This document shows, one piece after another, positions 6,770 to 63,876 of a stretch of 64,000 nt of DNA. The translations under genes and the position numbers were made by a program. The stretch lies in contig JAIPGM010000002.1 in assembly GCA_021735655.1 (NCBI GenBank), positions 1 through 64,000 of the forward strand, in the 5' to 3' direction. Under the pieces are notes generated by a model. It had not been told where the DNA came from and did no database searches. It saw only the letters and a list, made by a program, of their open reading frames with translations. How positions within the stretch are numbered: position 1 is the first letter of the stretch; every line of letters starts with the position of its first letter. Origin of the DNA: Candidatus Omnitrophota bacterium. GTDB taxonomy: Bacteria > Omnitrophota > Gorgyraeia > Duberdicusellales > 4484-171.

Positions 6770-7617
6770 CTTCCCAGAACTTAGAAACTAACGCTAAAAA
6801 CACATGGTGCCCGGGCTGCGGTAATTTCGCTATTTTAAATTCCATAAAAGCGGTCTTAAAAAGTATCCGTGAAGAAGGAACGTCTTTAGAGAATGTGGTA
6901 TTGGTCTCCGGGATCGGTTGTCATGCTAAAATAGTTGACTATATAAACGCGAACAGTTTCTATTCTATTCACGGAAGAGCCACACCAGCAGCCGAAGGAA
7001 TTAAACTCGCGAATCCAAATCTTAAAGTTATAGGTTTTGCCGGTGACGGTGACGCTTATGGCGAAGGATTGGAACATCTGATATTCGCCGCTAAGCGGAA
7101 TATCGATATTACTATGATAATACATGATAATCGTGTATACGGGCTTACAACTGGCCAGTATACCCCTACATCTCCGCTTGGTTTTAAAGGCCGTTCGACT
7201 CCCGGGGGAAGTAAGGAACGCCCGATTAACCCTCTTGAACTTATGCTGGCCAGCGGCGCGACTTTTCTTGCCAGAGGTTTTTCACATGGAATAGAACAGC
7301 TCAAGAAAATATTTAAGGAAGCGATAAACCATAAGGGCTTTGCTTTGGTAGATGTACTTCAAGTTTGCGTTACCTTCTATAACATGTATGAGTACTACGA
7401 TAAACGAGTGTATGAACTAAAAGATCATGATGCAGGAGATTATGCCGAGGCGCTTAATAAAATAAAGGAATGGAATTATCACGATGATTCGAAGATAGCG
7501 CTTGGTGTATTATATAAAAAAGAAAGTCCGACTTTTGAAGAGGGGCTTTCATCATCCGGAAAAAGCGAAATAGACGTTGATTCAAACATAAAAAGCATAC
7601 TGGCTAAAACTATTTAA
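6766..7617 (+). CDS. korB: 2-oxoacid:ferredoxin oxidoreductase beta subunit (TPP-binding)
   Basis: WCPGCGNF plus GIGCH ... [12 protein letters not shown]-binding motif. Translationally coupled to korA (4-nt overlap). Confidence 0.85.
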
Positions 7618-7633
7618 TTGTGAAGGAGGGGAT

Positions 7634-8059
7634 ATGAGAGATCATGTTTATAAAGTTGTTGAGCTTGTCGGGTCTTCAAAAGCCACCATAGAAGATGCGG
7701 TTAAAAACGCTCTTTCCAAGTCGTCGGAATCTATCAGAAATTCACGATGGTTTGAGGTTAATCAAATAAGGGGGGAAATAGAAGACGGCGAAGTATCGTA
7801 TTGGCAGGTTGGGTTAAAGCTGGGGTTTACAGTCGAAGGGAGCAGCCGGAAAGAAGAGGTACCTGTCGAAACAAGTAAAAAAGCGGCAAAAACAGGGAAA
7901 TACCAATGCAAGGTTTGCAGCTATATCTATGATCCCGAAAAAGGTGACCCGGATAACGGCATAAAAGCGGGGACCTCTTTTAAAGATTTACCCGATGACT
8001 GGAAATGCCCGGAATGCGGTGTAAACAAGGATCAATTTGAAGAAATGAAGGGAGAGTAA
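7634..8059 (+). CDS. Dodecin - rubredoxin fusion protein
   Basis: N-terminal ~70 aa match the dodecin fold sequence ([12 protein letters not shown] ... [11 protein letters not shown] ... [13 protein letters not shown]). C-terminal ~50 aa are a rubredoxin ([14 protein letters not shown] ... WKCPECG). Confidence 0.75.
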
Positions 8060-8060
8060 T

Positions 8061-8915
8061 ATGGATAGAAGAATTACCTTGAAGTCAAAAACACTGTTTT
8101 TGGCAGGCAGGAGAGTCAAAGAAGGAGACTCGGCGTCACAATTTTATGCAGTTGATAGCGAGCTTAAGGAAGTTAAACTAACTGACTACAAAGATTCTAT
8201 AAAAATCATCACCTCTTTTCTTTCTCTGGATACACCTACTTGTAATTTGCAAGTTAAGGAATTTAACAAAAGGGCTAGCAAGTTGGCAGAAGATATTGTT
8301 GTTATCGGCATCAGCCAGGATTTACCTTTCGCCCAAAAGCGCTTTTGTGAGGCGAATAAAATCGAGAAGGTAATAACTCTTTCTGATTACAAAACCAACT
8401 CTTTTGGCATTAATTACGGCCTTTTGATTAAAGAACTGCGCCTTCTGGCCCGTGCGGTTATTATTGTAGATAAAAACAATGTCATTCGTTATGTTTCGAT
8501 TGTTCAAGAGGCAAGTGATGAGCCGGATTACCAGTCAGCGCTAAAGGCACTAAAAGATGTGATCGAAAAACCATTTCTTAAGGGATCCCAAGAGAGGCCT
8601 TCTCATTGTCTTCCCTGTGAAGCCGGTACCCCACCGCTTAAAGAGGGCCGCATAGAGCAGTTAATGGCTACTGTTGAGGGCTGGGAACTTATCGAAGGCA
8701 AGAAAATAAAAAAGACTTTTAAATTCAAAGATTTTATTGAGGCCAAATATTTTTTGGATATTATTAGCGTCATTGCCGAAGAGCAGGGCCATCATCCTAA
8801 CATCACGATTATTTATAATAAAGTAACGATTACGCTTACCACTCACGCTATCGGCGGGCTTAGCGATAATGATTTTATTATGGCTCAGATCATAGATGAA
8901 ATAGGGGGGGCCTGA
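8061..8915 (+). CDS. Thiol peroxidase (Tpx-like peroxiredoxin) fused to pterin-4a-carbinolamine dehydratase
   Basis: Tpx-like region with peroxidatic Cys context (SLDTPTCNLQ) and resolving Cys (KRFCEA). C-terminal PCD/DCoH motif EEQGHHPNITIIYNKVTITLTTH. Confidence 0.7.
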   Translation: MDRRITLKSKTLFLAGRRVKEGDSASQFYAVDSELKEVKLTDYKDSIKIITSFLSLDTPTCNLQVKEFNKRASKLAEDIVVIGISQDLPFAQKRFCEANKIEKVITLSDYKTNSFGINYGLLIKELRLLARAVIIVDKNNVIRYVSIVQEASDEPDYQSALKALKDVIEKPFLKGSQERPSHCLPCEAGTPPLKEGRIEQLMATVEGWELIEGKKIKKTFKFKDFIEAKYFLDIISVIAEEQGHHPNITIIYNKVTITLTTHAIGGLSDNDFIMAQIIDEIGGA

Positions 8916-10201
8916 TGAAAAGAGTCATAGCGATATATCGTTGGGGACTCATATTGATAACCGGATTTGTTTTATTATTTTTGCCGAAACTTGCCCAAGC
9001 CGAGATACACGCTGAAACTATAGAGTATAAAGACGGCGAGGTTATTTTGGAAGGGTATCTTGCTTATGATGACTCAATAAAAGAAAAACGTCCCGGGGTT
9101 TTAGTCGTGCATGAGTGGACAGGCATAAACGATTATATAAAACAACGTGTTAATCAATTGGCAGAAGAAGGTTATATAGCTTTTGCGGCTGATATTTATG
9201 GTAAAAGCATCAGACCGCAAAATAAGGAAGAAGCGGCTAAGCAGGCGGGCATTTACCGTGCCGACCGTAAACTCATGCGCAGAAGGGTACAGGCGGGTTT
9301 GGCCTGCCTTAAAAAAAATCCGATCACCGACCCTTCGCGTATTGCCGCGATAGGTTATTGTTTCGGCGGTGGCGTGGTCTTGGAGCTTGCCCGAAGCGGA
9401 GCTGATGTCGAGGGAGTGGTAAGCTTTCATGGCAACCTGGATACTCCTAACCCGGAAGACGCCGGAATGATAAAAGCGAAAGTGCTGGTTCTTCATGGTG
9501 CCGATGATCCCCATGTTCCAATGAGACAGGTAAAAGATTTTGAGAGGGAAATGGACCGGGCAAATGTGGATTGGCGCATGGTAAGTTACAAAGGCGCTGT
9601 CCATAGTTTTACGAATCCGGCGTCCGGAAACGATCCTTCCACGGGCGCGGCTTACAACAAAGAAGCGGATATGAATTCATGGAAAGAAATGATTGCCTTC
9701 TTTAATAAAATATTTCACGATTATAATTGGCCTTTAGAGGCTATGGCAAATATTACCGATACTAGTGGTAAAGAAGTAGGGAAGGTGCTGTTTAGGGAAA
9801 ACGAAGGCCGCGGAGTAACCATAGATTTAAAGCTACATTCATTTTTACCGGGCAGGCACGCTTTTCATATACATGAATTTCCTGTTTGTGATGCGCCGGA
9901 CTTTAAATCAGCAGGAGGGCATTTTAATCCTTATGGAAAACAGCATGGGTTTCTGAACGAAAAAGGCCACCATGCCGGGGATTTGCCAAATATCATTGTA
10001 GAGGAAAATGGTAATTGCCAGATGTCTTTCACTACGACACAGATAACTTTAAGAAAAGATAAGGAAAATTCTATATTAAGAAAGTTTGGGACATCTCTGG
10101 TGATTCATGAGCTGCCGGATGATTATTTCACCGATCCGGCCGGAGGCGGCGGCAAGAGGCTTGCCTGCGGAACAATAAAAGAAGTGGAGGTAAAAAGGTG
10201 A
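8915..10201 (+). CDS. Secreted dienelactone hydrolase - Cu/Zn superoxide dismutase fusion
   Basis: Signal peptide. DLH-family core (VLVVHEWTGIN ... GYCFGGG ... LVLHGADD). C-terminal SodC motifs (HAFHIHEFPVCD ... GGHFNPYGKQHG ... HAGDLPNI ... LVIHELPDD ... RLACGTI). Confidence 0.75.
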   Translation: MKRVIAIYRWGLILITGFVLLFLPKLAQAEIHAETIEYKDGEVILEGYLAYDDSIKEKRPGVLVVHEWTGINDYIKQRVNQLAEEGYIAFAADIYGKSIRPQNKEEAAKQAGIYRADRKLMRRRVQAGLACLKKNPITDPSRIAAIGYCFGGGVVLELARSGADVEGVVSFHGNLDTPNPEDAGMIKAKVLVLHGADDPHVPMRQVKDFEREMDRANVDWRMVSYKGAVHSFTNPASGNDPSTGAAYNKEADMNSWKEMIAFFNKIFHDYNWPLEAMANITDTSGKEVGKVLFRENEGRGVTIDLKLHSFLPGRHAFHIHEFPVCDAPDFKSAGGHFNPYGKQHGFLNEKGHHAGDLPNIIVEENGNCQMSFTTTQITLRKDKENSILRKFGTSLVIHELPDDYFTDPAGGGGKRLACGTIKEVEVKR

Positions 10202-13402: not shown

Positions 13403-13711
13403 ACAGCGGCCCTTAAAGAGGCATTCGGGATAAAAAAAGGGGGGGGTGATTACGATGGCCAGACTGAAAAATATCAAGGAAAAGGCTAAGCGGGTAATCG
13501 AAAAAGCAAAAAGTAAAATGAAATGTAAATGTTGAAAGGCCTTGCTGTTAAAGGGAGTGCATTACAAATGAGATGAAAAACAAAAAGGTCAGAAGTGACT
13601 CATCTGCGCAAGATTGCCATTGAATAGCCAGCTAGCATCGTAGCAAGAAAGACTCAAGATCCTCTGCCGACGCTTTAAAAAAAGGGGGTCTTGAGTTTAT
13701 TTTTTCCCTTA

Positions 13712-26796: not shown

Positions 26797-28194
26797 ATGC
26801 AGTTAGCACGCAAAATTCTTTTTTATTTTTTTGTTTTGGCCTATTTAGTCCTCTGTCCTTTGCTTATTTTCTATTCTTTAGGCTATATTTATCAACCAAA
26901 AAAGAAAGATATTTCGCAAACCGGCCTGATCCACCTTGTCAGTATTCCGGCCGGAGCCCAGGTTTATCTGGATGGCCGGCGTTTCAAAGATAAAACTCCG
27001 GCTACGATCAGCGAACTTAATCCGGGAAGCTATCGGGTAAAGTTAAGGCTAAAGAACCGCCGGCCTTGGGTTCATGAGGTAACGGTTAAAGCGGGAAAAT
27101 CAGCGGCTTTTAAAAATATTCTCCTTTTGCCGCACAGTTTCGATAAAACAACTATCGGCCCCAAACGGGTTTATACCAATTTATATTCGCTAAAAAATTC
27201 CGACTATCTGATTGTTCAGCAAGGCCCCCGGCTTAAGGAATTTTATGTTTATGACTTAGCCGAAAAAAGTCTCAAAACCATTATTGATAAGGATTCTCAA
27301 TATGCCGAATTAGCGGTGGAGCGTTTATTCAGCGCTGCCGGCAGCACTTATCTGATTATCTACGGCGGTTCTTTATGGGACCGGCAGTATTTGCTTATTG
27401 ATTTTAAGGAAAAAAAGCCCGGTTTAAAAGAAATAAGCCGGCTTTTTTCTCGGCATCCCGATTGGCTGGTTTGGTCGGAAGATTTACCTGAGGATATTTT
27501 TTCTATTTATGGCGTCGGCCTCGACCGCTTGGACATTAAAAATTTATCGCTCTATCCGCAGTATTTTGAGAACATTAAGGGCTTTGGCTTGATGGATAAA
27601 CAGTTTTATGTCCTGGGCAAGGATAACTTGATCAGAAAATTAAGCCTGGATAAGCAGGAGGAGGCTATTCTATTTGAGGATGAACATTTGGGCCGGGAGT
27701 TGTTCGCCAAATCAGGGTTTTATCGCATAGAGCCGCTTAATAAGGATAAGCTTATTTTTTGGGGCCGGCGCGGTGACCTGGTGATGACTGTGCCGCCTTA
27801 TGCCATTTTTGATCAGGGGGTTTTGGGCATGGAATATGAGCGGTTTAACAGCCGGCTTCTGTTCTGGACCAAGCATGATATCTGGCTGGCCGAGTTTAAC
27901 GGCCAGGCCCAAGACGATGTTTTATTCAGGCAGCGCCTGCGCCTTAATAAGATATATGAAGGGGGCTTTAATTTAAGCCAATGCTTTTGGGTTTATAGCG
28001 CAAGCAATTTGCTGCTTAAAGACAAAACCGAGATTTATCTTTTGGGCTTAACTCCGGACGGCCGGCACCATAGAGAACATATTGTCAGCGCTAAACAAAA
28101 TACTGAAGTATTTTACTATGAGCCTGAAGGTTGTTTGTACTATTTAGATAAAAAGGGGGCCTTGGTGAAGCTTAAGCTTTTAGCGGCTGATTAG
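26797..28194 (+). CDS. PEGA-domain membrane-anchored protein
   Basis: N-terminal TM helix then a PEGA-like beta domain (SIPAGAQVYLDGRRFKDKTPATISELNPGSYRVKLRL). Confidence 0.5.
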   Translation: MQLARKILFYFFVLAYLVLCPLLIFYSLGYIYQPKKKDISQTGLIHLVSIPAGAQVYLDGRRFKDKTPATISELNPGSYRVKLRLKNRRPWVHEVTVKAGKSAAFKNILLLPHSFDKTTIGPKRVYTNLYSLKNSDYLIVQQGPRLKEFYVYDLAEKSLKTIIDKDSQYAELAVERLFSAAGSTYLIIYGGSLWDRQYLLIDFKEKKPGLKEISRLFSRHPDWLVWSEDLPEDIFSIYGVGLDRLDIKNLSLYPQYFENIKGFGLMDKQFYVLGKDNLIRKLSLDKQEEAILFEDEHLGRELFAKSGFYRIEPLNKDKLIFWGRRGDLVMTVPPYAIFDQGVLGMEYERFNSRLLFWTKHDIWLAEFNGQAQDDVLFRQRLRLNKIYEGGFNLSQCFWVYSASNLLLKDKTEIYLLGLTPDGRHHREHIVSAKQNTEVFYYEPEGCLYYLDKKGALVKLKLLAAD

Positions 28195-28207
28195 TAATAG
28201 AGATATT

Positions 28208-29854
28208 ATGGATTTTCAATATTCACGCCAGGGGGTTAAAGGTAGAGAAAAGAGTTGGCAGCGGTTTCTGGAGGTTCTGCCCGGGTTCCTGAGCTGGACA
28301 GTGATTATCGGAATAGTGGTGCTATCGGTGTTACAGCCTTTAACGGCGGCGGTGGTCATGATCGCTTTTCTGCTTTATTGGCTGCTGCGGCTTATCTACA
28401 TGAACATTTTTCTTTTGCTTTCGTATACCCGTCTGGAGATCGAAAAAACTACTGATTGGCAGGAGTGTATTGCCTCTGTGGACCGCTTGAAAGTCCAGAC
28501 GCCGGTTTTCTGCGGCCCGGCTAAACAGCGCAGCCTAAAAGAAACAATTGCCGCCCGTATCCATTACCGGCAATTGAGGAAGCTTAAAACAAGCAAGAAC
28601 CTGCCGCCTTCCTCGGAAAATATTTACCACTTGCTTATTTTGCCGGTTATCCGCGAAGCCCGGCAAGTGGTTGAGCCGGCTATTGAAGCGGTTAAGCAGG
28701 GGAGTTTTCCGGCCGAAAGATTTCTGGTAATCATTGCTCTTGAGGATTCAGCTTCCCAGAAAGTCAAGCAGCAGACGGATGAACTGCGGGAAAAATATAA
28801 AAACGTTTTTTTAGATTTTTTAGTCATTTTACATCCGGAAAACCAACCCGGGGAAGCTAAAGTTAAGGGGGCCAATGTAAGCTTTGCCGCCCGCCGGGCT
28901 CAAAGTTTTTTCAGCGCCAAAGGCATTAAGCCGGAAAATATCCTGGTATCCTGTTTTGACGCCGATACAGTGGCCAATCCCGATTATTTCAGCTGTCTTA
29001 CTTATCATTATCTGATAAATCCTCTTCGCCTGCAGTCAAGCTATCAGCCGATCCCGGTTTATCACAATAACATTTGGGAGGTTGCCGGTTTTGCCAGGAT
29101 CCTTGATATCGGCACTTCTTTCTTCCAGCTGATCGAAGCAACTAATCCCGGTAAATTGGTTACTTTTTCCAGCCATAGTATGAGTTTTAAGGCCTTGCAG
29201 GATGTCGGCTACTGGCCGGTGGATATGATTTCTGATGACTCGGCTATTTTCTGGAAGGCATTTATCCATTATCAGGGCAATTATCGGGTTAGGCCCATTT
29301 ATACAACAGTTTCTATGGATATTGCTGCCGGGCCAGGCCTAAAGGAGACTTTTACCGCAATTTATAAACAGAAGCGGCGCTGGGCCTGGGGAATAGAAAA
29401 TTTTCCGATTGTGGTAAGAGGATTTTTTCAGGTAAAAAAAATCAGTTTCAGCCGCAAGCTAAGTTACGGTTATAAATTGCTGGATGGTTTTGTCTCCTGG
29501 GCTACCTGGTCGTTTTTGTTATTACTCGGCAGCTGGCTACCGGCATTTTTTGCTTCTCGGGAATTTTCTTCCAGCACGGCCTATTACCTTGCCCCGCGCA
29601 TCCGCGGGATTATGTTTAGCCTGGCTTCAATCGGAATTATTATTTGTACGGTAATAAGTTTATTACTGCTTCCCCGAAGAGAAGGTAAACACGGAATCCT
29701 AATCGGGGTCAAACATATACTTGAATGGTTGTTTATCCCGGTGGCGCTTTTATTCTTGAGTGCCATACCGGCGCTTGATGCCCAAACCCGCCTTATGTTC
29801 GGAAAATATATGGAGTTCTCGGTAACCGGAAAATACCGTAAATCAAAATCCTAA
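28208..29854 (+). CDS. Processive family-2 glycosyltransferase (polysaccharide synthase, cellulose/chitin-synthase-like)
   Basis: N- and C-terminal TM helices flank a GT-A domain with motifs ALED, KVKGANVS, FDADTV (DxD), ISDDSA and Q-K-R-R-W (QxxRW). Confidence 0.7.
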   Translation: MDFQYSRQGVKGREKSWQRFLEVLPGFLSWTVIIGIVVLSVLQPLTAAVVMIAFLLYWLLRLIYMNIFLLLSYTRLEIEKTTDWQECIASVDRLKVQTPVFCGPAKQRSLKETIAARIHYRQLRKLKTSKNLPPSSENIYHLLILPVIREARQVVEPAIEAVKQGSFPAERFLVIIALEDSASQKVKQQTDELREKYKNVFLDFLVILHPENQPGEAKVKGANVSFAARRAQSFFSAKGIKPENILVSCFDADTVANPDYFSCLTYHYLINPLRLQSSYQPIPVYHNNIWEVAGFARILDIGTSFFQLIEATNPGKLVTFSSHSMSFKALQDVGYWPVDMISDDSAIFWKAFIHYQGNYRVRPIYTTVSMDIAAGPGLKETFTAIYKQKRRWAWGIENFPIVVRGFFQVKKISFSRKLSYGYKLLDGFVSWATWSFLLLLGSWLPAFFASREFSSSTAYYLAPRIRGIMFSLASIGIIICTVISLLLLPRREGKHGILIGVKHILEWLFIPVALLFLSAIPALDAQTRLMFGKYMEFSVTGKYRKSKS

Positions 29855-29856
29855 AC

Positions 29857-30900
29857 GTGAAAAGAGCTGTCAAATTTGCTTTATTTATTTTTCTCTTGAT
29901 AATCCCGCAAAAGACTTACGCTGAAGAAGTAAAGGTGGGGGTTACTTTCAGCCAGGTGCAGTGTGAGTATTTAGATTTGAATTGGCGAAAGATTTATAAA
30001 AAAACCATGGCTTTGGATTTAGATGTCATCCGTTTAGGGGCTTATTGGAGCCGGATTGAGAAAAGCCGCGATAAATTTGATTTTAGCGAACTTGATTGGC
30101 AGATTCAGCAGGCAAAAGAAAATAATATCCCGGTATTGCTTACTGTGGGAATGAAAGCGCCGCGCTGGCCGGAATATTTTATCCCGGCCTGGCTGATGAA
30201 GGATTTATCTTTTCGTTTTGGCTCAGCAGTTTCCGATCGAAAAATTATTAAGGAGCGTAGTCTGCTCTTTATCCGGCGGGTAGTTGAGCGCTACAAAAAG
30301 GAAGCTATCATTGTTGCCTGGCAGGTAGAAAATGAACCATTGAACAGAGCCGGCCCCAAGGATTGGCGGATACGGAACGATTTTTTGCAAGAAGAGATTG
30401 ATCTGGTAGAGAAACTGGATACGAGAAGCCGTCCTATCGTTATAAATGCGATGACTTATCTTAACCGAATATTAAGATTTTTTAACCGGCTTATTTACAC
30501 CAAGAATCCGGTCTATCAGATAATCGATATTGCTGATATTCCTGCTTTTAATATTTACTCGACTATCGGCCATAAACTCATTGGCCAGAAAATCTGTTTT
30601 TTGACTGTTCCTCAAAAACGTTTAAAATACCTTAAACGCTTTGTTGATTATGCGAAAGCTCAGGATAAAACGGTCTGGGTTACTGAGCTTCAGGCCGAAC
30701 CCTGGGAGCCAGGGGAATTGGTGCATATCCGTAAGGAAGCAGCGATTACCTGCAGAGCCGAAGATTTCCCGGTTAGTTTTGGGGAGCTGGAGTATTTAGG
30801 GGTGGATACGGTTTTTTTCTGGGGAGTTGAATACTGGTTTTACCGGATGCAGTATTATAAAGATAAAAGCTGGCTGGATGCTTTTGAGCAGATACCTTAA
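29857..30900 (+). CDS. Secreted glycoside hydrolase, clan GH-A (GH5-like TIM barrel)
   Basis: Signal peptide. Acid/base NEP motif (VAWQVENEPLN) and a later nucleophile Glu region (VWVTELQAEPWE). Confidence 0.55.
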   Translation: MKRAVKFALFIFLLIIPQKTYAEEVKVGVTFSQVQCEYLDLNWRKIYKKTMALDLDVIRLGAYWSRIEKSRDKFDFSELDWQIQQAKENNIPVLLTVGMKAPRWPEYFIPAWLMKDLSFRFGSAVSDRKIIKERSLLFIRRVVERYKKEAIIVAWQVENEPLNRAGPKDWRIRNDFLQEEIDLVEKLDTRSRPIVINAMTYLNRILRFFNRLIYTKNPVYQIIDIADIPAFNIYSTIGHKLIGQKICFLTVPQKRLKYLKRFVDYAKAQDKTVWVTELQAEPWEPGELVHIRKEAAITCRAEDFPVSFGELEYLGVDTVFFWGVEYWFYRMQYYKDKSWLDAFEQIP

Positions 30901-34413: not shown

Positions 34414-35013
34414 ATGTCGCAAAGCATTGAGAATAAAGTAGTTAGCAGGATTTATGGTAAGAATAGGGGTTGGGTATTCACTCCAAATCACTTTCTTGAC
34501 CTTGGAAGCCGTACAGCCGTGGCTCAAGCCTTGGGGCGGTTGGCAAAAGCCGGTACTATTCGCCGATTGGCACATGGACTATATGATTATCCTGAGAAAC
34601 ACCCTACGCTGGGCGATCTTCCGCCTAACTATGAGCGGATAGCCCAAGCTTTGGCAGGAAGGGATAGTTTAAAAATTCAGCCATCGGGGGCGTATGCCGC
34701 CAATCTGCTCGGGCTTACTGAGCAGGTTCCTGCAAAGATTGTTTTTCTGACTGACGGCCCTAATCGCAAAGTACAAATAAACAAACAGCAGGTTGTCTTA
34801 AAAAGGACAACTCCTAAAAATATGGCCACTGCCATGCGGGTGAGCGGTCTGGTTATCCAGGCTCTGCGTCATTTAGGCCAAGATCATGTGGATGATAAAA
34901 TAATCGGGATGCTTAAGAAAAGATTATCCAGCGATGACAAGCGTCAGCTTATAAACGACCTTCGTTACGCTCCTGTATGGATAGGAAATATATTTCGGCA
35001 ATTACAAGGATAA
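34414..35013 (+). CDS. abiEi: AbiEi-family antitoxin/transcriptional regulator (type IV TA / abortive infection)
   Basis: N-terminal winged-helix AbiEi_4-like region (VFTPNHFLDLGSRTAVAQALGRLAKAGTIRRLAHGLYDY). Confidence 0.7.
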   Translation: MSQSIENKVVSRIYGKNRGWVFTPNHFLDLGSRTAVAQALGRLAKAGTIRRLAHGLYDYPEKHPTLGDLPPNYERIAQALAGRDSLKIQPSGAYAANLLGLTEQVPAKIVFLTDGPNRKVQINKQQVVLKRTTPKNMATAMRVSGLVIQALRHLGQDHVDDKIIGMLKKRLSSDDKRQLINDLRYAPVWIGNIFRQLQG

Positions 35014-35020
35014 GAAGCCT

Positions 35021-36046
35021 GTGGACAAATTCGTATTATTGAGTGATAAAGACAAACGCGCCTATTTCGAAGTAGCCGCGGCTGACTTGAATGTAATGCC
35101 ACAGCTTATTGAAAAGGATTTCTGGGTTTGTTGGATACTCAGGACCCTTTTTTCGTTACCGTCATCAGGCAGTCACTTGACATTTAAGGGCGGTACATCA
35201 CTTTCAAAATGCTATGACGTTATCAGGCGTTTTTCAGAAGATGTCGATATTTCGATAGAAAGGTCTTTTTTATCAAGCCAACAGGCCATTGAACCTAAAA
35301 AACAAGAAAGTAACAAAGAAAACCAGCGAAGACTTGAAAGGTTACAGTTAGCCTGTCAAGCAAAGATCAGCGGCACTCTAATCCCAGAACTGAAAAAAAG
35401 TATTGCCGCTATTCTGACCGATAGAAAAAAATGGAATCTCGAAATCGATTCTAACGACGCATTAAAGCAGACAGTTTTGTTTACTTTCCCACACGCTTTG
35501 ACAAATAGTATGGAAAGCTACGTAAAGGCCGCTGTTAAAATTGAGTTTGGTTCCAGAGCCGACCATTGGCCTGTTGAAAATATGGCTGTTACGCCATATG
35601 TTGCTAATGTTTCAGACGATGTGACTATTGAAGGTGCATCAGTGCGTGTTTTAGCCGCAGAGCGGACCTTTTGGGAGAAAGCGACCATACTTCATATGAT
35701 ATATCATTATCCTGAAGGTAAGAATGTGCCTCCGCGGATGTCGCGGCACTATTATGATTTATTCGCGATGGTAGATTCTTTTGTATACAAGAAATCTTTA
35801 GAAAAAATATCGCTATTGAAACATGTATCCGATCATAAGTCTTTATTTTTTAAAGCTAACTGGGCGCATTATGAAGAGGCTAAACCGGGCAGCTTGCGGC
35901 TGGTGCCGCGCGATGACCAAATAAGCCAGTTGAAAACTGATTACCGACAAATGCAACAAATGTTTTTTGAGGATCCCCCGTCATTTGAGAGTGTTTTAGA
36001 GAAACTAAAAATAGCGGAAGATAAGATTAGCAGGGTCAAACAATGA
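35021..36046 (+). CDS. abiEii: AbiEii/AbiGii-family nucleotidyltransferase toxin (DUF1814)
   Basis: NTase motif FKGGTSLSKCYDVIRRFSEDVDI. 341 aa. Immediately downstream of abiEi. Confidence 0.7.
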   Translation: MDKFVLLSDKDKRAYFEVAAADLNVMPQLIEKDFWVCWILRTLFSLPSSGSHLTFKGGTSLSKCYDVIRRFSEDVDISIERSFLSSQQAIEPKKQESNKENQRRLERLQLACQAKISGTLIPELKKSIAAILTDRKKWNLEIDSNDALKQTVLFTFPHALTNSMESYVKAAVKIEFGSRADHWPVENMAVTPYVANVSDDVTIEGASVRVLAAERTFWEKATILHMIYHYPEGKNVPPRMSRHYYDLFAMVDSFVYKKSLEKISLLKHVSDHKSLFFKANWAHYEEAKPGSLRLVPRDDQISQLKTDYRQMQQMFFEDPPSFESVLEKLKIAEDKISRVKQ

Positions 36047-55401: not shown

Positions 55402-56334
55402 ATGAACGATCCAAAAGATTTAATTATTGTGGGAGCCGGTATAGCCGGAGTAAGTGCAGCTATTTATGCTAAACGGTCTGGGCTCGATTTTTTAATTTTC
55501 GAGCCTCAAGCTGTTGGCGGACAACTTTTGCTTATGCAGGATATCGATAACTATGTCGGTATTGGCTTAGGTTTGAAAGGTGTCCAGATGGCTCAGACTT
55601 TAGTTAAGACTTTGGATGATTTAGAGATCGAGGTCATCAATGAACGAATAAGTAAAGCTGAATTCGAAAAGGATCAGGTTATTTTTCAATCAGAAGATGC
55701 TACTTATATTGCAAAAACAGCTATTATTGCAACTGGGGCTAGTTTTAAAAAATTAGGTTTGGCCAAAGAGGCTAAATTTACTGGCAAAGGTATATCTTAT
55801 TGTGCGGTTTGTGATGGTTTCTTTTTTAAGGGAAAAGACGTAGCCGTGGTCGGCGGTGGTAATACAGCAGTTGAAGAGGCTTTGTATCTTTCGGACATTG
55901 CCAATAAAGTTACCCTTATTCATCGTCGCGATAAGTTAAGATCACTTGATTATTTACAGAAGCAGCTTTTGGCTAAAGATAATGTAGAGATTGCTTACAA
56001 TAGTGTAGTGGTTGAGCCCAAGGGTAAGGAGCTATTAGAGGAAATCATTATTGAAGATAACCTAACTAAAGATAAGCGTACCATAGCTTTACAGGGGTTA
56101 TTTGTTGCAATCGGCATTAATCCAGCAACTGAAATTTTTAAAGAGTTGGTAGCAAGAGACGATAAAGGTTTTATAATCACCGATCAGGAAATGAAGAGTT
56201 CTTGCGATTTAGTTTGGGCTTGTGGCGATTGCCGCAAGCGTCCCCTAAAGCAGCTGATAACGGCAGCCTCAGAAGGTGCTACAGCTGCCCTCAGCGCCTA
56301 TAAGCACATTAAAGGTCATTATATAAGTTCCTAA
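55402..56334 (+). CDS. trxB: Thioredoxin reductase
   Basis: IIVGAGIAGVSAAIYAKR, redox CAVCDGFFF, GKDVAVVGGGNTAVEEAL. Confidence 0.85.
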   Translation: MNDPKDLIIVGAGIAGVSAAIYAKRSGLDFLIFEPQAVGGQLLLMQDIDNYVGIGLGLKGVQMAQTLVKTLDDLEIEVINERISKAEFEKDQVIFQSEDATYIAKTAIIATGASFKKLGLAKEAKFTGKGISYCAVCDGFFFKGKDVAVVGGGNTAVEEALYLSDIANKVTLIHRRDKLRSLDYLQKQLLAKDNVEIAYNSVVVEPKGKELLEEIIIEDNLTKDKRTIALQGLFVAIGINPATEIFKELVARDDKGFIITDQEMKSSCDLVWACGDCRKRPLKQLITAASEGATAALSAYKHIKGHYISS

Positions 56335-57305
56335 TGTCTAAGAAGAAGAATTTCTTTCTAATTTTTAAAGTTGTTGTAACTATAGCAATTCTCTTTGCTC
56401 TTTTTAAGCTAGTACCCTATCAGAAAATAATCGAAGTTTTCAAAGATTCAAATAAAATATATCTTTTTTATGCTGCACTTATTTTCTTTAGTTGTTATTT
56501 TATTGCTGCCTGTCGTTGGCGCTTTCTTCTTTCTTCTCTAGGCGTTGACATGTCTTTTAAAGAAGTTTTCTATGCTTTTTTCTCAGGTCTGTTTTTTAAT
56601 TTATTTTTTCCGTCTTTTGTTGCCGGTGATGTATTTAGAAGCATGAGTATTTCCTATCGCCACGGCTCAGCAAAAAAAGTTGCCTCGTCGGTGCTGATGG
56701 ATAGATTCAGTGGTGCGATAGCTTTGGTTTCAGTTTCGGCGATAGCCTATTTTTTCGGCAGAGATATTTTGAATGACCCTCAGATAATTGTAGCCATAGC
56801 TATTCTTTGTTTGATAATTGTGTTTTCGTCTTTAGTAATATTTAATCGGAAAGTCTTTTTATTTTTAACTAAGATTTTTAGAAAAAATGATGCGATTGAA
56901 GAGAAAATTATTTCTTTTCATGATCAGCTTTATTTTTTCAAAAATAACCCCAAGGTGCTTTTAAAAAGTTTGTATTTTTCGGTGCCGATGCAGATGCTAA
57001 CTGCCATCAGTTTTTTTATTGCTTCTCGAGCATTTGGAGTAGAGGTGAGTATTGTTAATTTTTTAATTTTAGTTCCGATAATTATGGCAATAGCGATGAT
57101 TCCAATTACGATTGCCGGAGCCGGCACCCGAGAGGCCTCAGCAGTTTACTTTTTTTCTCTAATCGGAATAGAAAAAAGCATTGGATTGGGAATATCTTTA
57201 CTTAACCTCATTCTTATGATAGTTGTTGGAATCTTAGGGGGTATTTTTTATGTTAGTGTATATCATCGATGGCTACAATCTCACTCACCGAGTAAAAAGT
57301 CTTAA
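56334..57305 (+). CDS. Lysylphosphatidylglycerol-synthase-TM-like (flippase-like, UPF0104) membrane protein
   Basis: 8 TM helices, conserved R-x-x-R near TM2 (CRWRFL). Confidence 0.55.
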   Translation: MSKKKNFFLIFKVVVTIAILFALFKLVPYQKIIEVFKDSNKIYLFYAALIFFSCYFIAACRWRFLLSSLGVDMSFKEVFYAFFSGLFFNLFFPSFVAGDVFRSMSISYRHGSAKKVASSVLMDRFSGAIALVSVSAIAYFFGRDILNDPQIIVAIAILCLIIVFSSLVIFNRKVFLFLTKIFRKNDAIEEKIISFHDQLYFFKNNPKVLLKSLYFSVPMQMLTAISFFIASRAFGVEVSIVNFLILVPIIMAIAMIPITIAGAGTREASAVYFFSLIGIEKSIGLGISLLNLILMIVVGILGGIFYVSVYHRWLQSHSPSKKS

Positions 57306-59135: not shown

Positions 59136-59210
59136 GGCCCCATCGTCTAGTCCGGCCTAGGACACATGGTTCTCAGCCATGAGACACCGGTTCGAATCCG
59201 GTTGGGGCTA
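59136..59210 (+). tRNA. tRNA-Glu (anticodon CTC)
   Basis: Manual cloverleaf fold: acceptor GGCCCCA/TGGGGCT, D-arm GTCT-AGTCCGGCCTA-GGAC, anticodon arm CATGG-TTCTCAG-CCATG, T-arm ACCGG-TTCGAAT-CCGGT. Followed by a T-run. Confidence 0.8.
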
Positions 59211-59262
59211 CTGTTTTTATTTCTCCCTATTGAATCCCCCCCTGTAGTGGTATAATTTAACT

Positions 59263-59925
59263 ATGAGAAAAGGATTTACCCTAATCGAACTAATAGTGGT
59301 CATTGCAATTATTGCAATTTTAGCTGCCATTATTGCTCCTAATGCTTTTAAAGCTATTGAGAAGGCAAAGATTGCAAAAACTATAGCCGAATTAAGGGTT
59401 TTCAAAACTGCTGCACATTCTTTGTATTCTGATACTGGTCGATGGCCAGGCTCTGGCGGAATTGGACCTATTGCTCAGTGGGTTTATCTTGATAATGGAT
59501 TAATTTGGCCGAGAACCCCTGCTGGTTTAAATAGCAGCTTGTTTGATAATGATGATGGAGTAGGAAATACAATTTCTGGTTGGGACGGACCGTATCTTGA
59601 TCGCCGATCATCTAAATCCGCTTGGGGTGGAACTTATGCTATGTATAAACGTTACAATGGTTTTCCTCAAACTGGATCTAGTGCCGGCGATCTTACTCTT
59701 GTTATTACTAGCATTTGTTATGGGTCACTTAATTCAGTGCTATCTAACAGGAATTGCCCTTTGAGTGAAGAATTAGCGGAGATAATTAATGGTAAAATTG
59801 AAGGCGACAATGATTTACGTTTTGACCAATCAACCGCCGGAAATTTTAGAAAGTTCCTTTGGGCTAACTCGGGTGATACTTGGGAAGGTTTTTATCATTT
59901 CATGATTGGAGAAGACGTTTTATAG
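59263..59925 (+). CDS. Type IV pilin-like protein (prepilin N-terminal cleavage/methylation domain)
   Basis: MRKG|FTLIELIVVIAIIAILAAIIAPNAF with Glu+5. Confidence 0.8.
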   Translation: MRKGFTLIELIVVIAIIAILAAIIAPNAFKAIEKAKIAKTIAELRVFKTAAHSLYSDTGRWPGSGGIGPIAQWVYLDNGLIWPRTPAGLNSSLFDNDDGVGNTISGWDGPYLDRRSSKSAWGGTYAMYKRYNGFPQTGSSAGDLTLVITSICYGSLNSVLSNRNCPLSEELAEIINGKIEGDNDLRFDQSTAGNFRKFLWANSGDTWEGFYHFMIGEDVL

Positions 59926-59938
59926 GGGGAGGCATCCC

Positions 59939-60496
59939 ATGAAAAAATCATTCACTCTAATCGAACTTATAGTAGTCATCGCTATTATAGCTATCCTTGC
60001 CGCAATTATTGCCCCGAATGCTTTTCGGGCTATTGAGAAGGCGAAGGTGGCTCAGGTGGTATCAGATTTAAAGACATTTAAAACAGCTGCTGTAGGTTAT
60101 TATGGGGATACTGGGCAGTGGCCACCAGATGGGGTTAGTTGGTTTACTGATGAAGAGCTGCAGTTTTTCATTACTGGAGTAGGGCAACCAGCAGGCTGGG
60201 ATGGACCCTATTTAGAAAGTTGGCCAAATCCACCTTGGCATTGTGAATTTGTCTATGGTGCTGATACGGTTCATGAAAATTATGATTGGGACCACTGGGT
60301 GGGGTGGTCTTATTGGGGTGTAGTGCCTGCGAATACTGATACTTGCGGTGCAAGTATTTCATGCGTTCCTCAAAAGTCAGCGACAAAGATAGATGTTAGT
60401 TTAGATGACGGTAACCCTTCTTCGGGCAGGGTTCGTTGGGTCAGCTCATATGCCGGTGGTTTCATGAATGCAATTATCATCGAAGGAGGACAGTAA
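59939..60496 (+). CDS. Type IV pilin-like protein, paralog 2
   Basis: MKKS|FTLIELIVVIAIIAILAAIIAPNAFRAIEKAK. GGGGGAGG RBS before the ATG at 59939. Confidence 0.8.
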   Translation: MKKSFTLIELIVVIAIIAILAAIIAPNAFRAIEKAKVAQVVSDLKTFKTAAVGYYGDTGQWPPDGVSWFTDEELQFFITGVGQPAGWDGPYLESWPNPPWHCEFVYGADTVHENYDWDHWVGWSYWGVVPANTDTCGASISCVPQKSATKIDVSLDDGNPSSGRVRWVSSYAGGFMNAIIIEGGQ

Positions 60497-60531
60497 AGGC
60501 CTGATTTGCATTGATAAGAGAAATAACTACT

Positions 60532-61134
60532 ATGAAAAAATCATTTACTCTCATTGAACTAATTGTAGTCATAGCTATCATTGCTATCCTTGCTGCAATC
60601 ATTGCTCCCAATGCCTTTCGTGCCATTGAGAAAGCTAAAATTACAAAAACCATTGCTGATCTAAAAGCCATAAAAACTGCCATTGGGGCTATGTATGCTG
60701 ATACTGGAAAATTTCCCAGCGGCTGTATTGCCTTTACCGTCAATGACCCTGAAGTTAATTTAGATACGGCACAGGCAGGGTTGGTATCCGAACCTCCGGT
60801 TGGAATTTTTACTGGCGCTACCGGCGGCACTTGTGAGTGGACCCAAGCTAATGTCAATTCTTGGGATGGTCCTTACCTTGAAAGCGGGCAAGTAAAGGAT
60901 GTTTGGCATTCAGCATATCATTATGACCCTGATTATTATTATTGCATAAATGGATATTTAAGCCCAGCTGGAGACGGGCCAATAACTAATTGCGGTGACG
61001 CTCCGGTAGCTCAAACTTGTCTAGAGGTATGCGGCGGCGCCTTTAACTGTGGCTTTCCAGTAATACAATCATTTGGCCCTGACAAAAGCGGTTATGGTTG
61101 TGATGATATTATAGTAAAAATGACACTCAATTAG
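60532..61134 (+). CDS. Type IV pilin-like protein, paralog 3
   Basis: Same N-terminal 35 aa as paralog 2, Cys-containing variable C-terminus. ATG at 60532. Confidence 0.8.
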   Translation: MKKSFTLIELIVVIAIIAILAAIIAPNAFRAIEKAKITKTIADLKAIKTAIGAMYADTGKFPSGCIAFTVNDPEVNLDTAQAGLVSEPPVGIFTGATGGTCEWTQANVNSWDGPYLESGQVKDVWHSAYHYDPDYYYCINGYLSPAGDGPITNCGDAPVAQTCLEVCGGAFNCGFPVIQSFGPDKSGYGCDDIIVKMTLN

Positions 61135-61280
61135 TGAAAAATAAATAGATAATTAACCACTTTTCCAATCCCAATCAACCCAAAACCGACTATTTCCTTT
61201 CCGTTTGACCACTTTTTACCAAGATGGTTGACAGTTTGGTTGACATCTTACGCTTAACTACTTGAGCCATAATAGTTTTA

Positions 61281-61324
61281 ATAGGACGCATGGTTCTTAG
61301 TCATGAGACACCGGTTCGAACTCG
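61281..61324 (+). other. Degenerate partial copy of the tRNA-Glu gene (D-stem 3' half through T-loop, about 39/44 identical)
   Basis: ataggacgcatggttcttagtcatgagacaccggttcgaactcg versus taggacacatggttctcagccatgagacaccggttcgaatccg at 59158-59201. The matching 3' acceptor end ggttggggcta reappears at 61453-61463 after a 128-bp GC-rich insert. Confidence 0.5.
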
Positions 61325-61619
61325 CAATTATTTAGGTTTTTACCTCTCGAGTCCATGAGTACGCCGAAGGCGTACGAATGAATCCTTCCGCCTGCGGACT
61401 AAAGTCCTCGGCGGAATCCCGCCGAATCCGCCAAAGGCAGATGCAGGCGGGAGGTTGGGGCTATTTGTTTTCATTTTTTCTTCAGAATTTTAGTAAATCC
61501 CATACGAATTAGTTTTCTATCTTTAAGGATGAGGCCAGGCTATATTTTGAGGTGGCATAAGAGTCAGCTGATGATATAATATGCTTAGTTCTAGAAGCAG
61601 TACATAAAGGGAGTAAAAG

Positions 61620-62543
61620 ATGAAAAAAGTAATCGTTGCGACAACAATACAAAACCCTACAGAAGCTATTGAAAAATTTGATAGTTTGAAGGAATGGACG
61701 CTTATTGTAGTAGGAGACTTAAAAACTCCAGAAAGTTATAAATTAGAAAATGGTATGTATTTCTCTCCCCAGGAGCAAGAAAAATATGATCAAGAGCTTT
61801 CTGATTTAATTGGCTGGAATACCCACGCGAGGAGAAATTTCGGCCATCTATTAGCAAAAGACATGGGTGCGGATGTTATTGCATGTGTGGATGATGACAA
61901 TATTCCGTATAATACATGGGGAAAAGACATTTTTATAGGAAAAGTTGTAGAGGCTAATTACTATGAATCTGACCTCGAGGCTTTTGACCCTGTAGGCGCT
62001 ACTAATCACCCTTACTTATGGCATAGAGGTTTTCCTATTCAGCTAATAAATAAAAGGGATTATAGTAAAAAAATAAAAAAGAAAATAAAAGTAGATATCC
62101 AAGCAGATTTTTGGAACGGTGATCCGGATATAGATGCTATATGCCGAATGATTTATAAATCGGAGGTTAGCTTCGAAGAACAGTATTTTCCTATAGCGTC
62201 TAACAAGCCGTCTCCTTTTAATTCGCAAAATACATTTATTGCGAAAGATGTCCTTCCATATTGTTTTTTTCTTCCACATATTACGCCACTTGGAAGACAG
62301 AGTGATATAGGGATCTCTTATCACTTAGCATCGCTGGGATATAATGTTATATATTGCAAGCCGTCTGTTTATCAGGCTAGAAACACACACAACTTAACTA
62401 TAGATATGGAGGATGAGTTTAAGGGATATATGAGCAATATAGATATCGTAAGAGCTATAGGCAATGGAACGTATAAGAAAGAAGACTTCTGGCCTGAACA
62501 GACATGCGCAGCATATGAGGTTTATCAGAGGAGATTTAAGTGA
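61620..62543 (+). CDS. Putative GT75/STELLO-like (DUF288-like) glycosyltransferase
   Basis: VIVATTIQNPTEAIEKF ... WTLIVVGDLKTP and a DDD motif (ACVDDDNIPY). AT-rich gene. Confidence 0.4.
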   Translation: MKKVIVATTIQNPTEAIEKFDSLKEWTLIVVGDLKTPESYKLENGMYFSPQEQEKYDQELSDLIGWNTHARRNFGHLLAKDMGADVIACVDDDNIPYNTWGKDIFIGKVVEANYYESDLEAFDPVGATNHPYLWHRGFPIQLINKRDYSKKIKKKIKVDIQADFWNGDPDIDAICRMIYKSEVSFEEQYFPIASNKPSPFNSQNTFIAKDVLPYCFFLPHITPLGRQSDIGISYHLASLGYNVIYCKPSVYQARNTHNLTIDMEDEFKGYMSNIDIVRAIGNGTYKKEDFWPEQTCAAYEVYQRRFK

Positions 62544-63460
62544 AGAATAGCAACGATACAAAAATCAATAATTCACTTTCCGGCATACTTTGTTGTATAA
62601 ATTTCAACGAAGTGCACTACGACAATATAGAATTTTTAAAAGATTTGTATAGCAATTTTGTTGATGTAGTTTTTTACGGGCCAGAGCGGAAGCAGGGGTT
62701 CGAAGTAAATCAATTATGCCACCATCGTGGCTATTTTAGTTATGCAGTGATATTAGACGCAATTAAAAAATTTCCAGATTACAATGGATATATATTTGTT
62801 AATGATGATTGTATCATGAATATATGGCAATTCATAAATAAAGACAAGACTAAAGTATGGTTGCAGCCGTTTCATTCTAAAGTTAATCGCCATGATTATA
62901 AAGAAAGCACATGGTTTTGGCTGAATGAGCCATGCGGTATCTCTGCTTATGGTAAAGCTTTCTTGCAAATCCCGCGTAGATACCGTGAAAGGCTTAAATC
63001 GTCATTTGGGTCTGAAGATGCTGTGATTTGTGGACCTGCTGATTGTTTTTATTTGCCCAAAAGACGGATAAATGATTTTGCTTCCTTGTTTGATATATAT
63101 TTTTCCAACAGGGTGTTTACTGAAATAGCGGTGCCTACTGGCCTATACGCAATCGAAGATAAGGCACAAATTACAGTTTTCAAGGGTCATGACAGAGTGA
63201 CATTTCCTTTGTCATTTATTCCTTATGACCTAAAAGCAAAAATATTCTACAGAGGAGAGTTGGACTTATACCATCCTTTAAAATTGTCTAATTCTAAAAT
63301 GAGATCTATGGTTAAAAATATGTTTAATGTATATCTTTTTCAAAGAAATAAATTTTTTTCAAAAATTTTAAGATTATGCGATTTGCTACGTCCTTTTATT
63401 TGGTTTTGGGCATATATGTATATGATTCAGGGGAGATTTTTGAGAAAGATTCGTTATTGA
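62540..63460 (+). CDS. Hypothetical GT-A-like protein (possible DUF5672-like)
   Basis: YIFVNDDC motif. Translationally coupled to the previous gene. AT-rich. Confidence 0.3.
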   Translation: MKNSNDTKINNSLSGILCCINFNEVHYDNIEFLKDLYSNFVDVVFYGPERKQGFEVNQLCHHRGYFSYAVILDAIKKFPDYNGYIFVNDDCIMNIWQFINKDKTKVWLQPFHSKVNRHDYKESTWFWLNEPCGISAYGKAFLQIPRRYRERLKSSFGSEDAVICGPADCFYLPKRRINDFASLFDIYFSNRVFTEIAVPTGLYAIEDKAQITVFKGHDRVTFPLSFIPYDLKAKIFYRGELDLYHPLKLSNSKMRSMVKNMFNVYLFQRNKFFSKILRLCDLLRPFIWFWAYMYMIQGRFLRKIRY

Positions 63461-63536
63461 AAAGTTATATGAGAAAGTAGAAGCAAACTGTTAACTTATA
63501 GTTTCGTGATATAATTTTAAGCAGAGGAGGTACCCT

Positions 63537-63674
63537 ATGAAAAAATCATTCACCCTCATCGAACCAATAGTAGTCATTGCTATTATTGCAGCAATCATCG
63601 CCCCTAATGCGTTTAAAGCTATTGAAAAAGCAGAGGAAGTAAAATGTCCACTTGGTGGCAAGATAAGAATCTAG
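63537..63674 (+). pseudogene. Truncated pilin N-terminal remnant (45 codons)
   Basis: MKKSFTLIEPIVVIAIIAAIIAPNAFKAIEKAEE. It matches the pilin 5' repeat but with an L-to-P change and a 4-codon deletion, then an early stop. Confidence 0.55.
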
Positions 63675-63845
63675 GAGGTAGGTGGTATTGGAAATTAATA
63701 TTAATGGTGCTATTTGTTGGTATTGCTGTACGAATCATTATTAGCATATCAATAAGATAACAGGTGATTTAATTTTATAGTATTTTTTTATTATGAAGTT
63801 GTTGATAACGGCTGGTCTATTTTTAATCGGATTCACAACTAGTCA

Positions 63846-63876
63846 TAAAAAATCCCGCCCTTTTACAGGCGGGATC
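63846..63876 (-). terminator. Rho-independent terminator for a minus-strand gene beyond the window end
   Basis: aaaaaa ATCCCGCC cttttacag GGCGGGAT. On the minus strand the hairpin is followed by a T-run. Confidence 0.5.

Follow-up and report, generated by a model that had tools for sequence, protein, structure and literature searches.

Within a 64,000-nucleotide stretch of DNA from a Candidatus Omnitrophota bacterium (assembly GCA_021735655.1, contig JAIPGM010000002.1, positions 1 to 64,000 of the forward strand; hereafter referred to as the window), two adjoining genes, here called A and B, encode proteins that are homologous to the two domains of the STELLO proteins. A and B match, respectively, the N-terminal and the C-terminal domain of proteins that have both in one chain and score above the Pfam STELLO threshold, and the pair can therefore be regarded as a split bacterial STELLO without transmembrane (TM) segments. 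On sequence grounds, we consider it very probable that A and B represent one enzyme distributed over two genes. A fuller reading, which we favour with some reserve, is that A and B are translationally coupled polypeptides, each corresponding to one of the two catalytic-type domains joined in a single STELLO chain, that they act by a mutase/transferase mechanism and that they reside in a block inserted at a tRNA-Glu gene.

Gene A (61620–62543, plus strand; locus tag K9L86_01300) encodes a 307-residue, GT75-related homolog of the STELLO N-domain, and gene B (62540–63460, plus strand; locus tag K9L86_01305) encodes a 306-residue predicted GT-A glycosyltransferase that is homologous to the STELLO C-domain. 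The TGA stop codon of A and the GTG start codon of B share four nucleotides (GTGA), and a Shine-Dalgarno-like GGAGA lies inside the 3′ end of A, six bases upstream of this overlap. An earlier reading of the letters alone (hereafter referred to as the original prediction) had described the genes as a coupled pair, which is borne out by the two same-strand open reading frames (ORFs) with their 4-nt overlap.

Protein A gave no match at E ≤ 1 against Pfam and NCBIfam, the RGP model PF03214 included. A word-indexed search returned 4832 relatives, and none of the best 120 of them (53–73% identity) had a Pfam domain; weak, sub-threshold matches to Pfam RGP were seen in 4 of 42 relatives. The profile built from these 42 relatives matched only the crystal structures of MtdL (E = 3e-28, residues 51–296), and A as a single sequence also matched MtdL in phmmer (E = 8.7e-17). 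When the AlphaFold2 (AF2) model of A, with a predicted local distance difference test score (pLDDT) of 94.8, was used in Foldseek, MtdL was the best match (template modeling score 0.76–0.79, normalised by query length; 22–23% identity), followed by rice UAM2 (PDB 8CID; E = 6.6e-11, 12% identity) and then by generic GT-A enzymes. Thus, A is related to GT75 by its sequence similarity to MtdL, its fold and its set of catalytic residues. These profile and fold searches, together with the alignment to a STELLO-type protein described below, agree with the original prediction, which had called the first protein STELLO/GT75-like.

We transferred the functional residues of MtdL (PMC9937993) to A through a HMMER alignment, which covers the two proteins only from residue 51–59 on and lacks the N-terminal part. 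In this alignment, MtdL D109–111 correspond to D91–93 of A, N112 to N94, R159 to R136, D195 to D170, S228/Q229 to S202/Q203, R257 to R226, D260 to D229, R289 to R254 and H292 to H257; Q252 completes the key residues of A. Across 84 sequences of the family, the mapped residues show little or no variation, and those forming the GT75 DxD motif, arginine, base and sugar site (D91–93, R136, D170, S202-Q203, R226 and D229) are invariant in all 84; D91–93 is the DDD motif that the original prediction had spotted. In MtdL, the arginine is proposed to attack C1, and its equivalent is self-glycosylated in plant RGPs; the aspartate is the proposed general base, and the Ser-Gln pair and an arginine hold the sugar and the β-phosphate (PMC9937993).

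A thus has in common with MtdL and Hyg20, the bacterial GT75 mutases that interconvert the pyranose and furanose forms of GDP-L-galactose/fucose (PDB 7XPR and 7YUA), the fold, the DDD motif, the catalytic Arg, the Asp base, and the Ser-Gln, two Arg residues and a His by which the sugar and diphosphate are bound. It differs from them in its low identity, in being 70 residues shorter, without the C-terminal helical tetramerisation region, in lying outside any antibiotic gene cluster and in escaping the Pfam RGP model, as well as at two functional positions discussed below. Relative to the plant RGP/UAM proteins of GT75, A keeps the self-glycosylated Arg and the DxD motif, whereas the UDP-selecting Pro, Asp and Asp appear, at the level of motifs, to be replaced by residues of the Thr/Lys/Thr type.

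Only two close relatives of protein B were found (51% and 47% identity), each encoded right after an A homolog with a 4-nt overlap, and an exhaustive profile search added 1011 further, more distant representatives. A profile of three B sequences had no match among PDB sequences, so that a fold search was required. The AF2 model of B (pLDDT 92.5) shows a GT-A fold that has a DxD motif after β-strand 4 and a C-terminal His of the metal-binding type. The invariant residues are G83, Y84, D89, D90, W107, E195, H245 and K248, with the conservation of D89-D90, E195 and H245 assessed across 60 relatives. The DxD motif at the end of β-strand 4 and the conserved C-terminal His are also found in inverting GT-A transferases of the GT31/GT14 type (B3GalT5, C1GalT1, chondroitin synthase and the galactofuranosyltransferase AfGfsA), but B is only 7–10% identical to these enzymes, lacks a profile match to them in the PDB and has neither their stem region nor a TM segment. 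The original prediction had called the second protein a ‘GT-A-like unknown’; the glycosyltransferase assignment holds, while the word ‘unknown’ misses its homology to the C-terminal domain of STELLO. The C-terminal long helix of B (residues 272–305) contains a short hydrophobic patch with basic flanks, which is conserved in the closest relatives. No signal peptide, TM segment or N-terminal hydrophobic segment was detected in either protein, the maximal 19-residue Kyte-Doolittle hydropathy being 1.05 for A and 0.92 for B.

The relationship to STELLO is seen most directly in long proteins among the B-family representatives, in which a B-like domain is preceded by an A-like region, namely P0204, P0234, P0393, P0395 and the fungal P0398 (Actinomortierella). 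P0204, with 735 residues, scores 104 bits on the Pfam STELLO model PF03385 (gathering cut-off 27.8). BLASTP aligned A to its residues 63–340 (32% identity, E = 4e-35) and B to its residues 472–729 (24% identity, E = 5e-22), and the family hidden Markov models (HMMs) placed A at residues 62–362 (E = 4e-44) and B at residues 458–732 (E = 3e-69). A is therefore closer to P0204 than to MtdL. All of the fusions scanned on Pfam (P0204, P0234, P0240, P0233 and P0185) passed the STELLO cut-off at 86–119 bits, with 119 for P0234, 89.5 for P0240 and 88 for P0233, in which the A-like stretch is shorter. P0398 shares a 90%-identity cluster with P0240, and P0399 one with P0233; P0398 and P0399 are the longer proteins, and the Pfam scan was done on P0240 and P0233. 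In P0399, the B-like domain is preceded by no more than a short A-like stretch (HMM positions 204–279). In P0185 and P0401, from Podila fungi, the domain order was B-like, A-like, B-like.

Matches to Pfam STELLO, mostly below the threshold, were also present in 40 of the 60 best B relatives and in 10 of the 42 A relatives. The C-terminal catalytic segment of the A family (residues ~223–276) matched positions 1–58 of the STELLO profile, and the N-terminal half of the B family matched positions ~190–360. As judged from P0204 (residues 292–423) and from the relatives of A and B, the PF03385 model begins in the C-terminal portion of the GT75-like domain, from where it extends into the second GT-A domain. 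It thus straddles the border between two structural domains and leaves most of the first one uncovered.

The gene order A-B is the same as the domain order of STELLO1/2 and the other members of PF03385 (DUF288) in plants, fungi and animals, in which a TM segment is followed by a GT75-related region and then by DUF288 (PMC4906169). The likeness extends to the motif VYQxRNxH in the first domain, with Gln at the position of the MtdL His (VYQERNVHNY in P0204, and Gln likewise in the other STELLO-type fusions), and to the motif GYxGYxFxNDD in the second. STELLO differs in being a single polypeptide, as against two overlapping genes, and in being anchored in the membrane by an N-terminal TM segment (type II), with its catalytic region in the lumen; the topology predicted for the TM-less A and B is cytoplasmic rather than Golgi-lumenal. 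A search of the literature available to us for bacterial homologs of STELLO/DUF288 found nothing of relevance.

Several observations weigh against the reading of A and B as a split STELLO-type enzyme with a mutase/transferase mechanism. Neither protein alone reaches a Pfam cut-off, A having no match and B scoring 23.3 bits on STELLO, and the more distant relatives of B stand apart from A, so that the coupling is not universal. His287 of MtdL, which coordinates Mn2+ and is conserved in active RGPs but lost in the inactive AtRGP5 (PMC9937993), is replaced by Q252 in A, and 83 of the 84 family members have Gln here. Asp87 of MtdL, which is needed for its mutase activity and is Ser in active RGPs (PMC9937993), corresponds to H69 in the clade of the window's A and to Ile in the main clade of the family. 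The STELLO paper reports no enzymatic activity; complementation by STL1 needed the aspartate motifs of the first region, but was not abolished by mutation of the RGP-type Arg (R271) or by the DD-to-AA change in the DUF288 part (PMC4906169). As these plant mutants fit a simple mutase model poorly, mutase-type chemistry may not be the role of STELLO-type domains. The block around A and B contains no gene of a donor-sugar pathway and none related to an acceptor.

How the two proteins might work together can be outlined as follows. Both would act at the cytoplasmic face of the membrane, because neither has a signal peptide or TM helices. A would bind a nucleoside diphosphate sugar and either remodel it from pyranose to furanose or carry the sugar on Arg136. 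B, as a putative inverting GT-A transferase of the GT31/GT14 kind with a DD motif, would then transfer the sugar to an envelope glycan or a lipid-linked acceptor, possibly while tethered at the cytoplasmic face by its C-terminal amphipathic helix. The MtdL catalytic set kept in A points to a pyranose/furanose mutase, a suggestion that is weakened by the His-to-Gln replacement, the change at Asp87 and the dispensability of the Arg in STL1. We hold this mutase-plus-transferase mechanism, which we prefer among those considered, as a tentative possibility. Best supported is the broader functional reading of a two-subunit enzyme of the STELLO type that processes a sugar and transfers it at the cytoplasmic face.

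The same residues can be viewed differently: A may not be a mutase at all, and A and B may be two ordinary glycosyltransferase sites, each adding a sugar, in a two-subunit synthase or polymerase like chondroitin synthase. GT75 enzymes are themselves GT-A proteins with glycosyl-transfer chemistry (PMC9937993), and A lacks both the Mn-binding His and the Asp87 of MtdL. This alternative is further favoured by the complementation obtained with STL1 lacking the RGP-type Arg (PMC4906169) and by the resemblance of the fusion architecture to bifunctional GT-A enzymes. What makes it doubtful in our judgement is that all of the residues with which MtdL carries out ring contraction, from the Arg and the Asp base to the sugar contacts, are invariant in A, and that mutases and self-glycosylating enzymes were the only biochemically characterised homologs recovered in the sequence and fold searches. 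A more far-reaching reading is that the bacterial pair reveals STELLO-type proteins in general to be two-enzyme machines, in which the GT75-like domain would ready the donor sugar (by ring contraction to a furanose, for example) or hold it until the GT31-like transferase domain takes it over. We regard this generalisation as rather unlikely.

STELLO is needed for the normal assembly of cellulose synthase complexes in plants. Were its proteins two-enzyme machines, the small, soluble and separable bacterial proteins would make their biochemistry directly testable. The split, soluble prokaryotic version, with translationally coupled halves, the first of which has an MtdL-type catalytic set, offers a tractable system with a clear hypothesis, in which the donor is remodelled and then transferred. 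The family of A comprises thousands of bacterial proteins for which there is no Pfam or NCBIfam model, and it could be named as GT75/STELLO-N-related. We consider A-B to be a predicted sugar-modifying cassette and the biological surprise to be moderate.

The A family extends over more than 12 phyla, at 52–69% identity (80 species-level genomes). Among 185,579 species in a collection, at least 285 loci could be confirmed, a lower bound limited by the search pattern. Neighbouring genes were compared by clustering of six-frame ORFs, in which shadow ORFs formed extra clusters that were ignored. The main clade, with the motif C-I-Q at residues 68–70, has a module of a GT2 glycosyltransferase (~250 residues), A and an SDR epimerase; the GT2 was present in 60 of 83 loci and the epimerase in 53 of 83. 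At times the module also includes a PMT_2 glycosyltransferase of the GT-C type and an LPG_synthase_TM protein, and no other neighbour is conserved. Examples of the main-clade module are found at 5756–9891 of locus L012, at 7177–10889 of L066 and in about 50 further loci (L010–L085), from more than 12 phyla.

The A of the window falls into a clade of its own kind, marked by T-H-A at residues 68–70, which align to S86/D87 of MtdL, positions implicated in base and sugar specificity (PMC9937993). Members of this clade with B downstream occur in four genomes (the window, L002, L004 and L089), and in a fifth A-B genome, L091, the A homolog is represented by no more than its last 94 residues and stands outside the tree. 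The three closest pairs all keep the 4-nt overlap, and B relatives with only 32–36% identity are still located directly 3′ of an A homolog. Other members of the T-H-A clade have different genes after A: an unclassified glycosyltransferase-like gene in L006, a GT2-like gene in L008 and DUF7796 in L009, while in L101 (6001–11236) an A homolog with 70% identity heads a cluster of sulfotransferase, GT2, PF03407 and GT2. The neighbours of the A-B pairs themselves also vary, being B12-radical SAM and methyltransferase genes in L002/L003, a GT1-like gene in L004, SPM in L089 and methyltransferases in L091. L101 originates from sample 3300009311 of the Joint Genome Institute (JGI), as does L094, a contig of the syntenic relative from which locus L093, described below, was also obtained. 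The window also has a flippase-like LPG_synthase_TM gene (56334–57305), which is native and syntenic in relatives; the occurrence of this family beside A modules elsewhere (L066) and as a native gene in the window is probably a coincidence.

A and B reside in a 4.6-kb block (59212–63843) that is specific to this lineage and spans from the 3′ end of a tRNA-Glu(CTC) gene to CATAAAAAA and a hairpin terminator before PilZ. A search for empty sites by the TPR flank in JGI metagenomes yielded only relatives with 23–30% identity, whereas TrxB (thioredoxin reductase, 55402–56334) served successfully as the synteny anchor, its three closest homologs being 83%, 78% and 77% identical. The window and the three relatives (L093, L095 and L097) share the gene order DUF1015, AccD, ABC, two GGDEF, PGI, Pta, AckA, PanD, Def, TrxB, LPG_synthase_TM, NYN, TPR, tRNA-Glu(CTC), PilZ (on the other strand), HisF, HisI, TrpE, S16, YajC and SecDF. 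In each relative, the tRNA is succeeded within 10–60 nt by the terminator hairpin and the PilZ end, and the relatives' loci of 7.5–21 kb contain no homolog of A, B or the pilins described below. Since these syntenic sites are empty between tRNA-Glu and the terminator, the inserted unit is the whole block of 59212 to about 63843, pilins included.

The target tRNA-Glu(CTC) gene (59136–59211, plus strand), identified by ARAGORN, by Rfam (56.9 bits) and by alignment with the relatives, is intact up to C74, and its encoded CCA end is broken (…GGGGCTAC followed at the break by TG in the window, as against …GGGGCTACCA in the relatives). Homology with the relatives ends after …GGGGCTAC (59211, C74) and restarts at CATAAAAAA and the hairpin (~63844), so that the left junction of the window falls exactly between C74 and C75. 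The right junction (63844–63875) consists of CATAAAAAA and, next to it, the hairpin TCCCGCC…GGCGGGA, which was also called as a terminator-like site on the minus strand; the relatives have retained both elements directly behind tRNA-Glu. From this comparison, the block appears to have been inserted in this lineage exactly at the 3′ end of tRNA-Glu(CTC).

Inside the block, the 486-nt spacer between the third pilin gene and gene A contains a second piece of tRNA-Glu (61282–61320, plus strand). This 39-nt fragment is identical to the tRNA at 36 positions (92%) and covers its positions ~23–61; the anticodon is changed from CTC to CTT, both tRNA ends are missing and ARAGORN makes no call. The internal fragment suggests that the pilin module and the A-B module arrived separately. 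The spacer also has a GC-rich, strongly folding non-coding stretch (61340–61470, plus strand; the fold of 61270–61500 has −83.6 kcal/mol, z = −5.1 against shuffled controls), for which there was no Rfam match and no second copy in the window or the fetched loci; in an Rfam scan of 58.9–64 kb, tRNA was the only match. A promoter-like site on the plus strand, GTGGCA-17-TATAAT with TG (61552–61580), lies 40 nt upstream of gene A and is a consensus match only.

The block resembles tRNA-linked genomic islands in its site at a tRNA 3′ end, its absence from syntenic relatives, its accessory, surface-related cargo and its partial tRNA copy. It differs from them in that it measures only 4.6 kb, has no clearly atypical composition and lacks flanking direct repeats of the tRNA 3′ part, and in that its partial tRNA copy is internal and derived from the middle, not the 3′ end, of the tRNA. 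No integrase was found among its ORFs, which are only the pilins, A and B, and there is no room for one; this absence, and the internal position of a fragment that is not a textbook attR, also speak against an ordinary island. As such, the block would be a case in which an Omnitrophota lineage took up a few surface-related genes (for pilins and glycosylation) at a tRNA without a recognisable integrase. The last ~20 nt of the block (63823–63843, TTAATCGGATTCACAACTAGT) loosely resemble the tRNA 3′ end (CGAATCCGGTTGGGGCTAC), too weakly for a repeat to be called. In L095, the tRNA-Glu(CTC) gene and its promoter region (13596–13671) are inverted relative to the window, L093 and L097, indicating that the site is prone to rearrangement in this lineage.

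The pilin/pseudopilin genes that precede A are located on the plus strand at 59263–59925 (gene 1, 220 residues, N_methyl and T2SSG-like), 59939–60496 (gene 2) and 60532–61134 (gene 3). The likely start of gene 2 is the ATG at 59939, after GGAGG, while the listed ORF starts with the TTG at 59906; that of gene 3 is the ATG at 60532, while the listed ORF starts with the TTG at 60511. All three genes matched N_methyl and T2SSG in Pfam/NCBIfam. A truncated pilin stub of 45 codons (63537–63674, plus strand) follows B; its homology to the pilin 5′ ends begins at the ribosome-binding site and reaches no further than about codon 33. Over 64 nt it shares 86% identity with pilin 2, and it has a 9-nt deletion and a Leu-to-Pro change. 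The flanks are thus as the original prediction had placed them, with the third pilin gene on the left and the truncated stub on the right. Its proposal of a foreign insertion is supported by the comparative synteny, for a larger unit, and not as an islet dropped between pre-existing pilins. Recombination at a pilin 5′ repeat, which it had suggested as the route, does not agree with the left edge of the A-B module being the tRNA fragment and with the pilins being co-cargo rather than a split array. Nor does the stub support this route, its similarity being confined to the conserved N-terminal coding part; its likeness to the pilin 5′ ends is what is expected of any pilin paralog under selection for the N-terminal helix.

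The low GC of A and B had been taken as a further sign of insertion. The drop is real in comparison with the neighbouring pilins: GC is 0.348 in the A-B islet, 0.421 in the pilin genes and 0.408 as the mean of the window, and, with the right end of the block set at 63845, it is 0.383 over the block, 0.414 in its pilin part, which has the genome-average GC, and 0.356 in its A-B part. The low GC, however, extends beyond the A-B islet, and windowed and per-gene analyses place both genes within the native range. Among 73 genes, A has a z score of −1.2 (rank 6) and B of −1.9 (rank 2) for GC; for GC at third codon positions (GC3) the z score is about −1.1 for both. Their codon-usage distances (0.167 for A and 0.171 for B) are ordinary against 0.154 ± 0.025 in genes of similar length. 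Native syntenic genes are comparably AT-rich (LPG_synthase_TM, 0.337; DUF1015, 0.339; TPR, 0.365). Because the GC, GC3 and codon usage of A and B fall in the native range, composition is no evidence of foreign origin; the original prediction had itself named a composition not distinct from that of AT-rich genes as what would speak against it, and this is what we observed. We therefore rejected composition as a mark of foreignness.

The history and purpose of the block allow other explanations. It might be ancestral and deleted in the relatives, with nothing having been inserted: only three relatives were available, their tree is drawn from one protein (TrxB), and the block has no integrase, no clean flanking direct repeats and no clearly atypical composition. 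In TrxB, however, the window groups with L097 (83% identity) and L093 with L095 (87%), with 75–78% between the pairs, and since absence in both groups requires at least two independent and precise losses, one gain in the lineage of the window is more parsimonious. Each loss would, in addition, have had to restore an intact tRNA-CCA directly before the same terminator, the junctions in the window fall exactly at C74/C75, and the patchy occurrence of the A family over more than 12 phyla at 52–69% identity is as for a transferred gene. An ancestral block is improbable in view of these findings.

Accepting an inserted block, one may ask what A and B do beside pilins. The original prediction had proposed pilin glycosylation, in which A would make an unusual donor and B would put the sugar on the co-inserted pilins or on their glycan. 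The joint presence of A-B and three pilins in one lineage-specific block of 4.6 kb agrees with it, co-location being the only positive evidence, and a furanose on pilins has a precedent: D-arabinofuranose is reportedly added to the group IV pilins of Pseudomonas aeruginosa via TfpW, which is said to be encoded beside pilA. In the other four A-B genomes, however, no pilin neighbours were found in the available DNA, some contigs being short; as A-B pairs elsewhere never adjoin pilins, the proposal is unsupported. Moreover, neither A nor B carries a signal peptide or a TM helix, whereas the globular domain of pilins is periplasmic; the block encodes no oligosaccharyltransferase or other membrane transferase of the PglL/PilO/TfpW type; and the tRNA fragment divides the pilin part from the A-B part, suggesting separate arrivals. 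No type IV pilus machinery, sugar-nucleotide genes or polysaccharide cluster was found near A-B, the genes of 24–57 kb being housekeeping ones. A role in pilin glycosylation thus seems to us quite unlikely. Finally, the pilin pseudogene stub and the tRNA fragment adjoining A and B indicate a rearranged region, and the two genes might be decaying passengers without function in this organism. Such decay is hard to reconcile with two full-length ORFs that keep all of the family-invariant residues, with an intact 4-nt overlap and internal Shine-Dalgarno-like motif and with models of pLDDT >92, and we consider it extremely unlikely.

Two other loci of the window were observed in passing. The consecutive genes at 26797–30900 encode a PEGA-domain protein, a 548-residue Glyco_trans_2_3 synthase and a glycoside-hydrolase-like protein, and may constitute an exopolysaccharide synthase unit unrelated to A-B. 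At 34414–36046, a gene for a DUF6088 protein is followed by one for an AbiEii nucleotidyltransferase toxin, an arrangement that resembles a type IV toxin-antitoxin pair.

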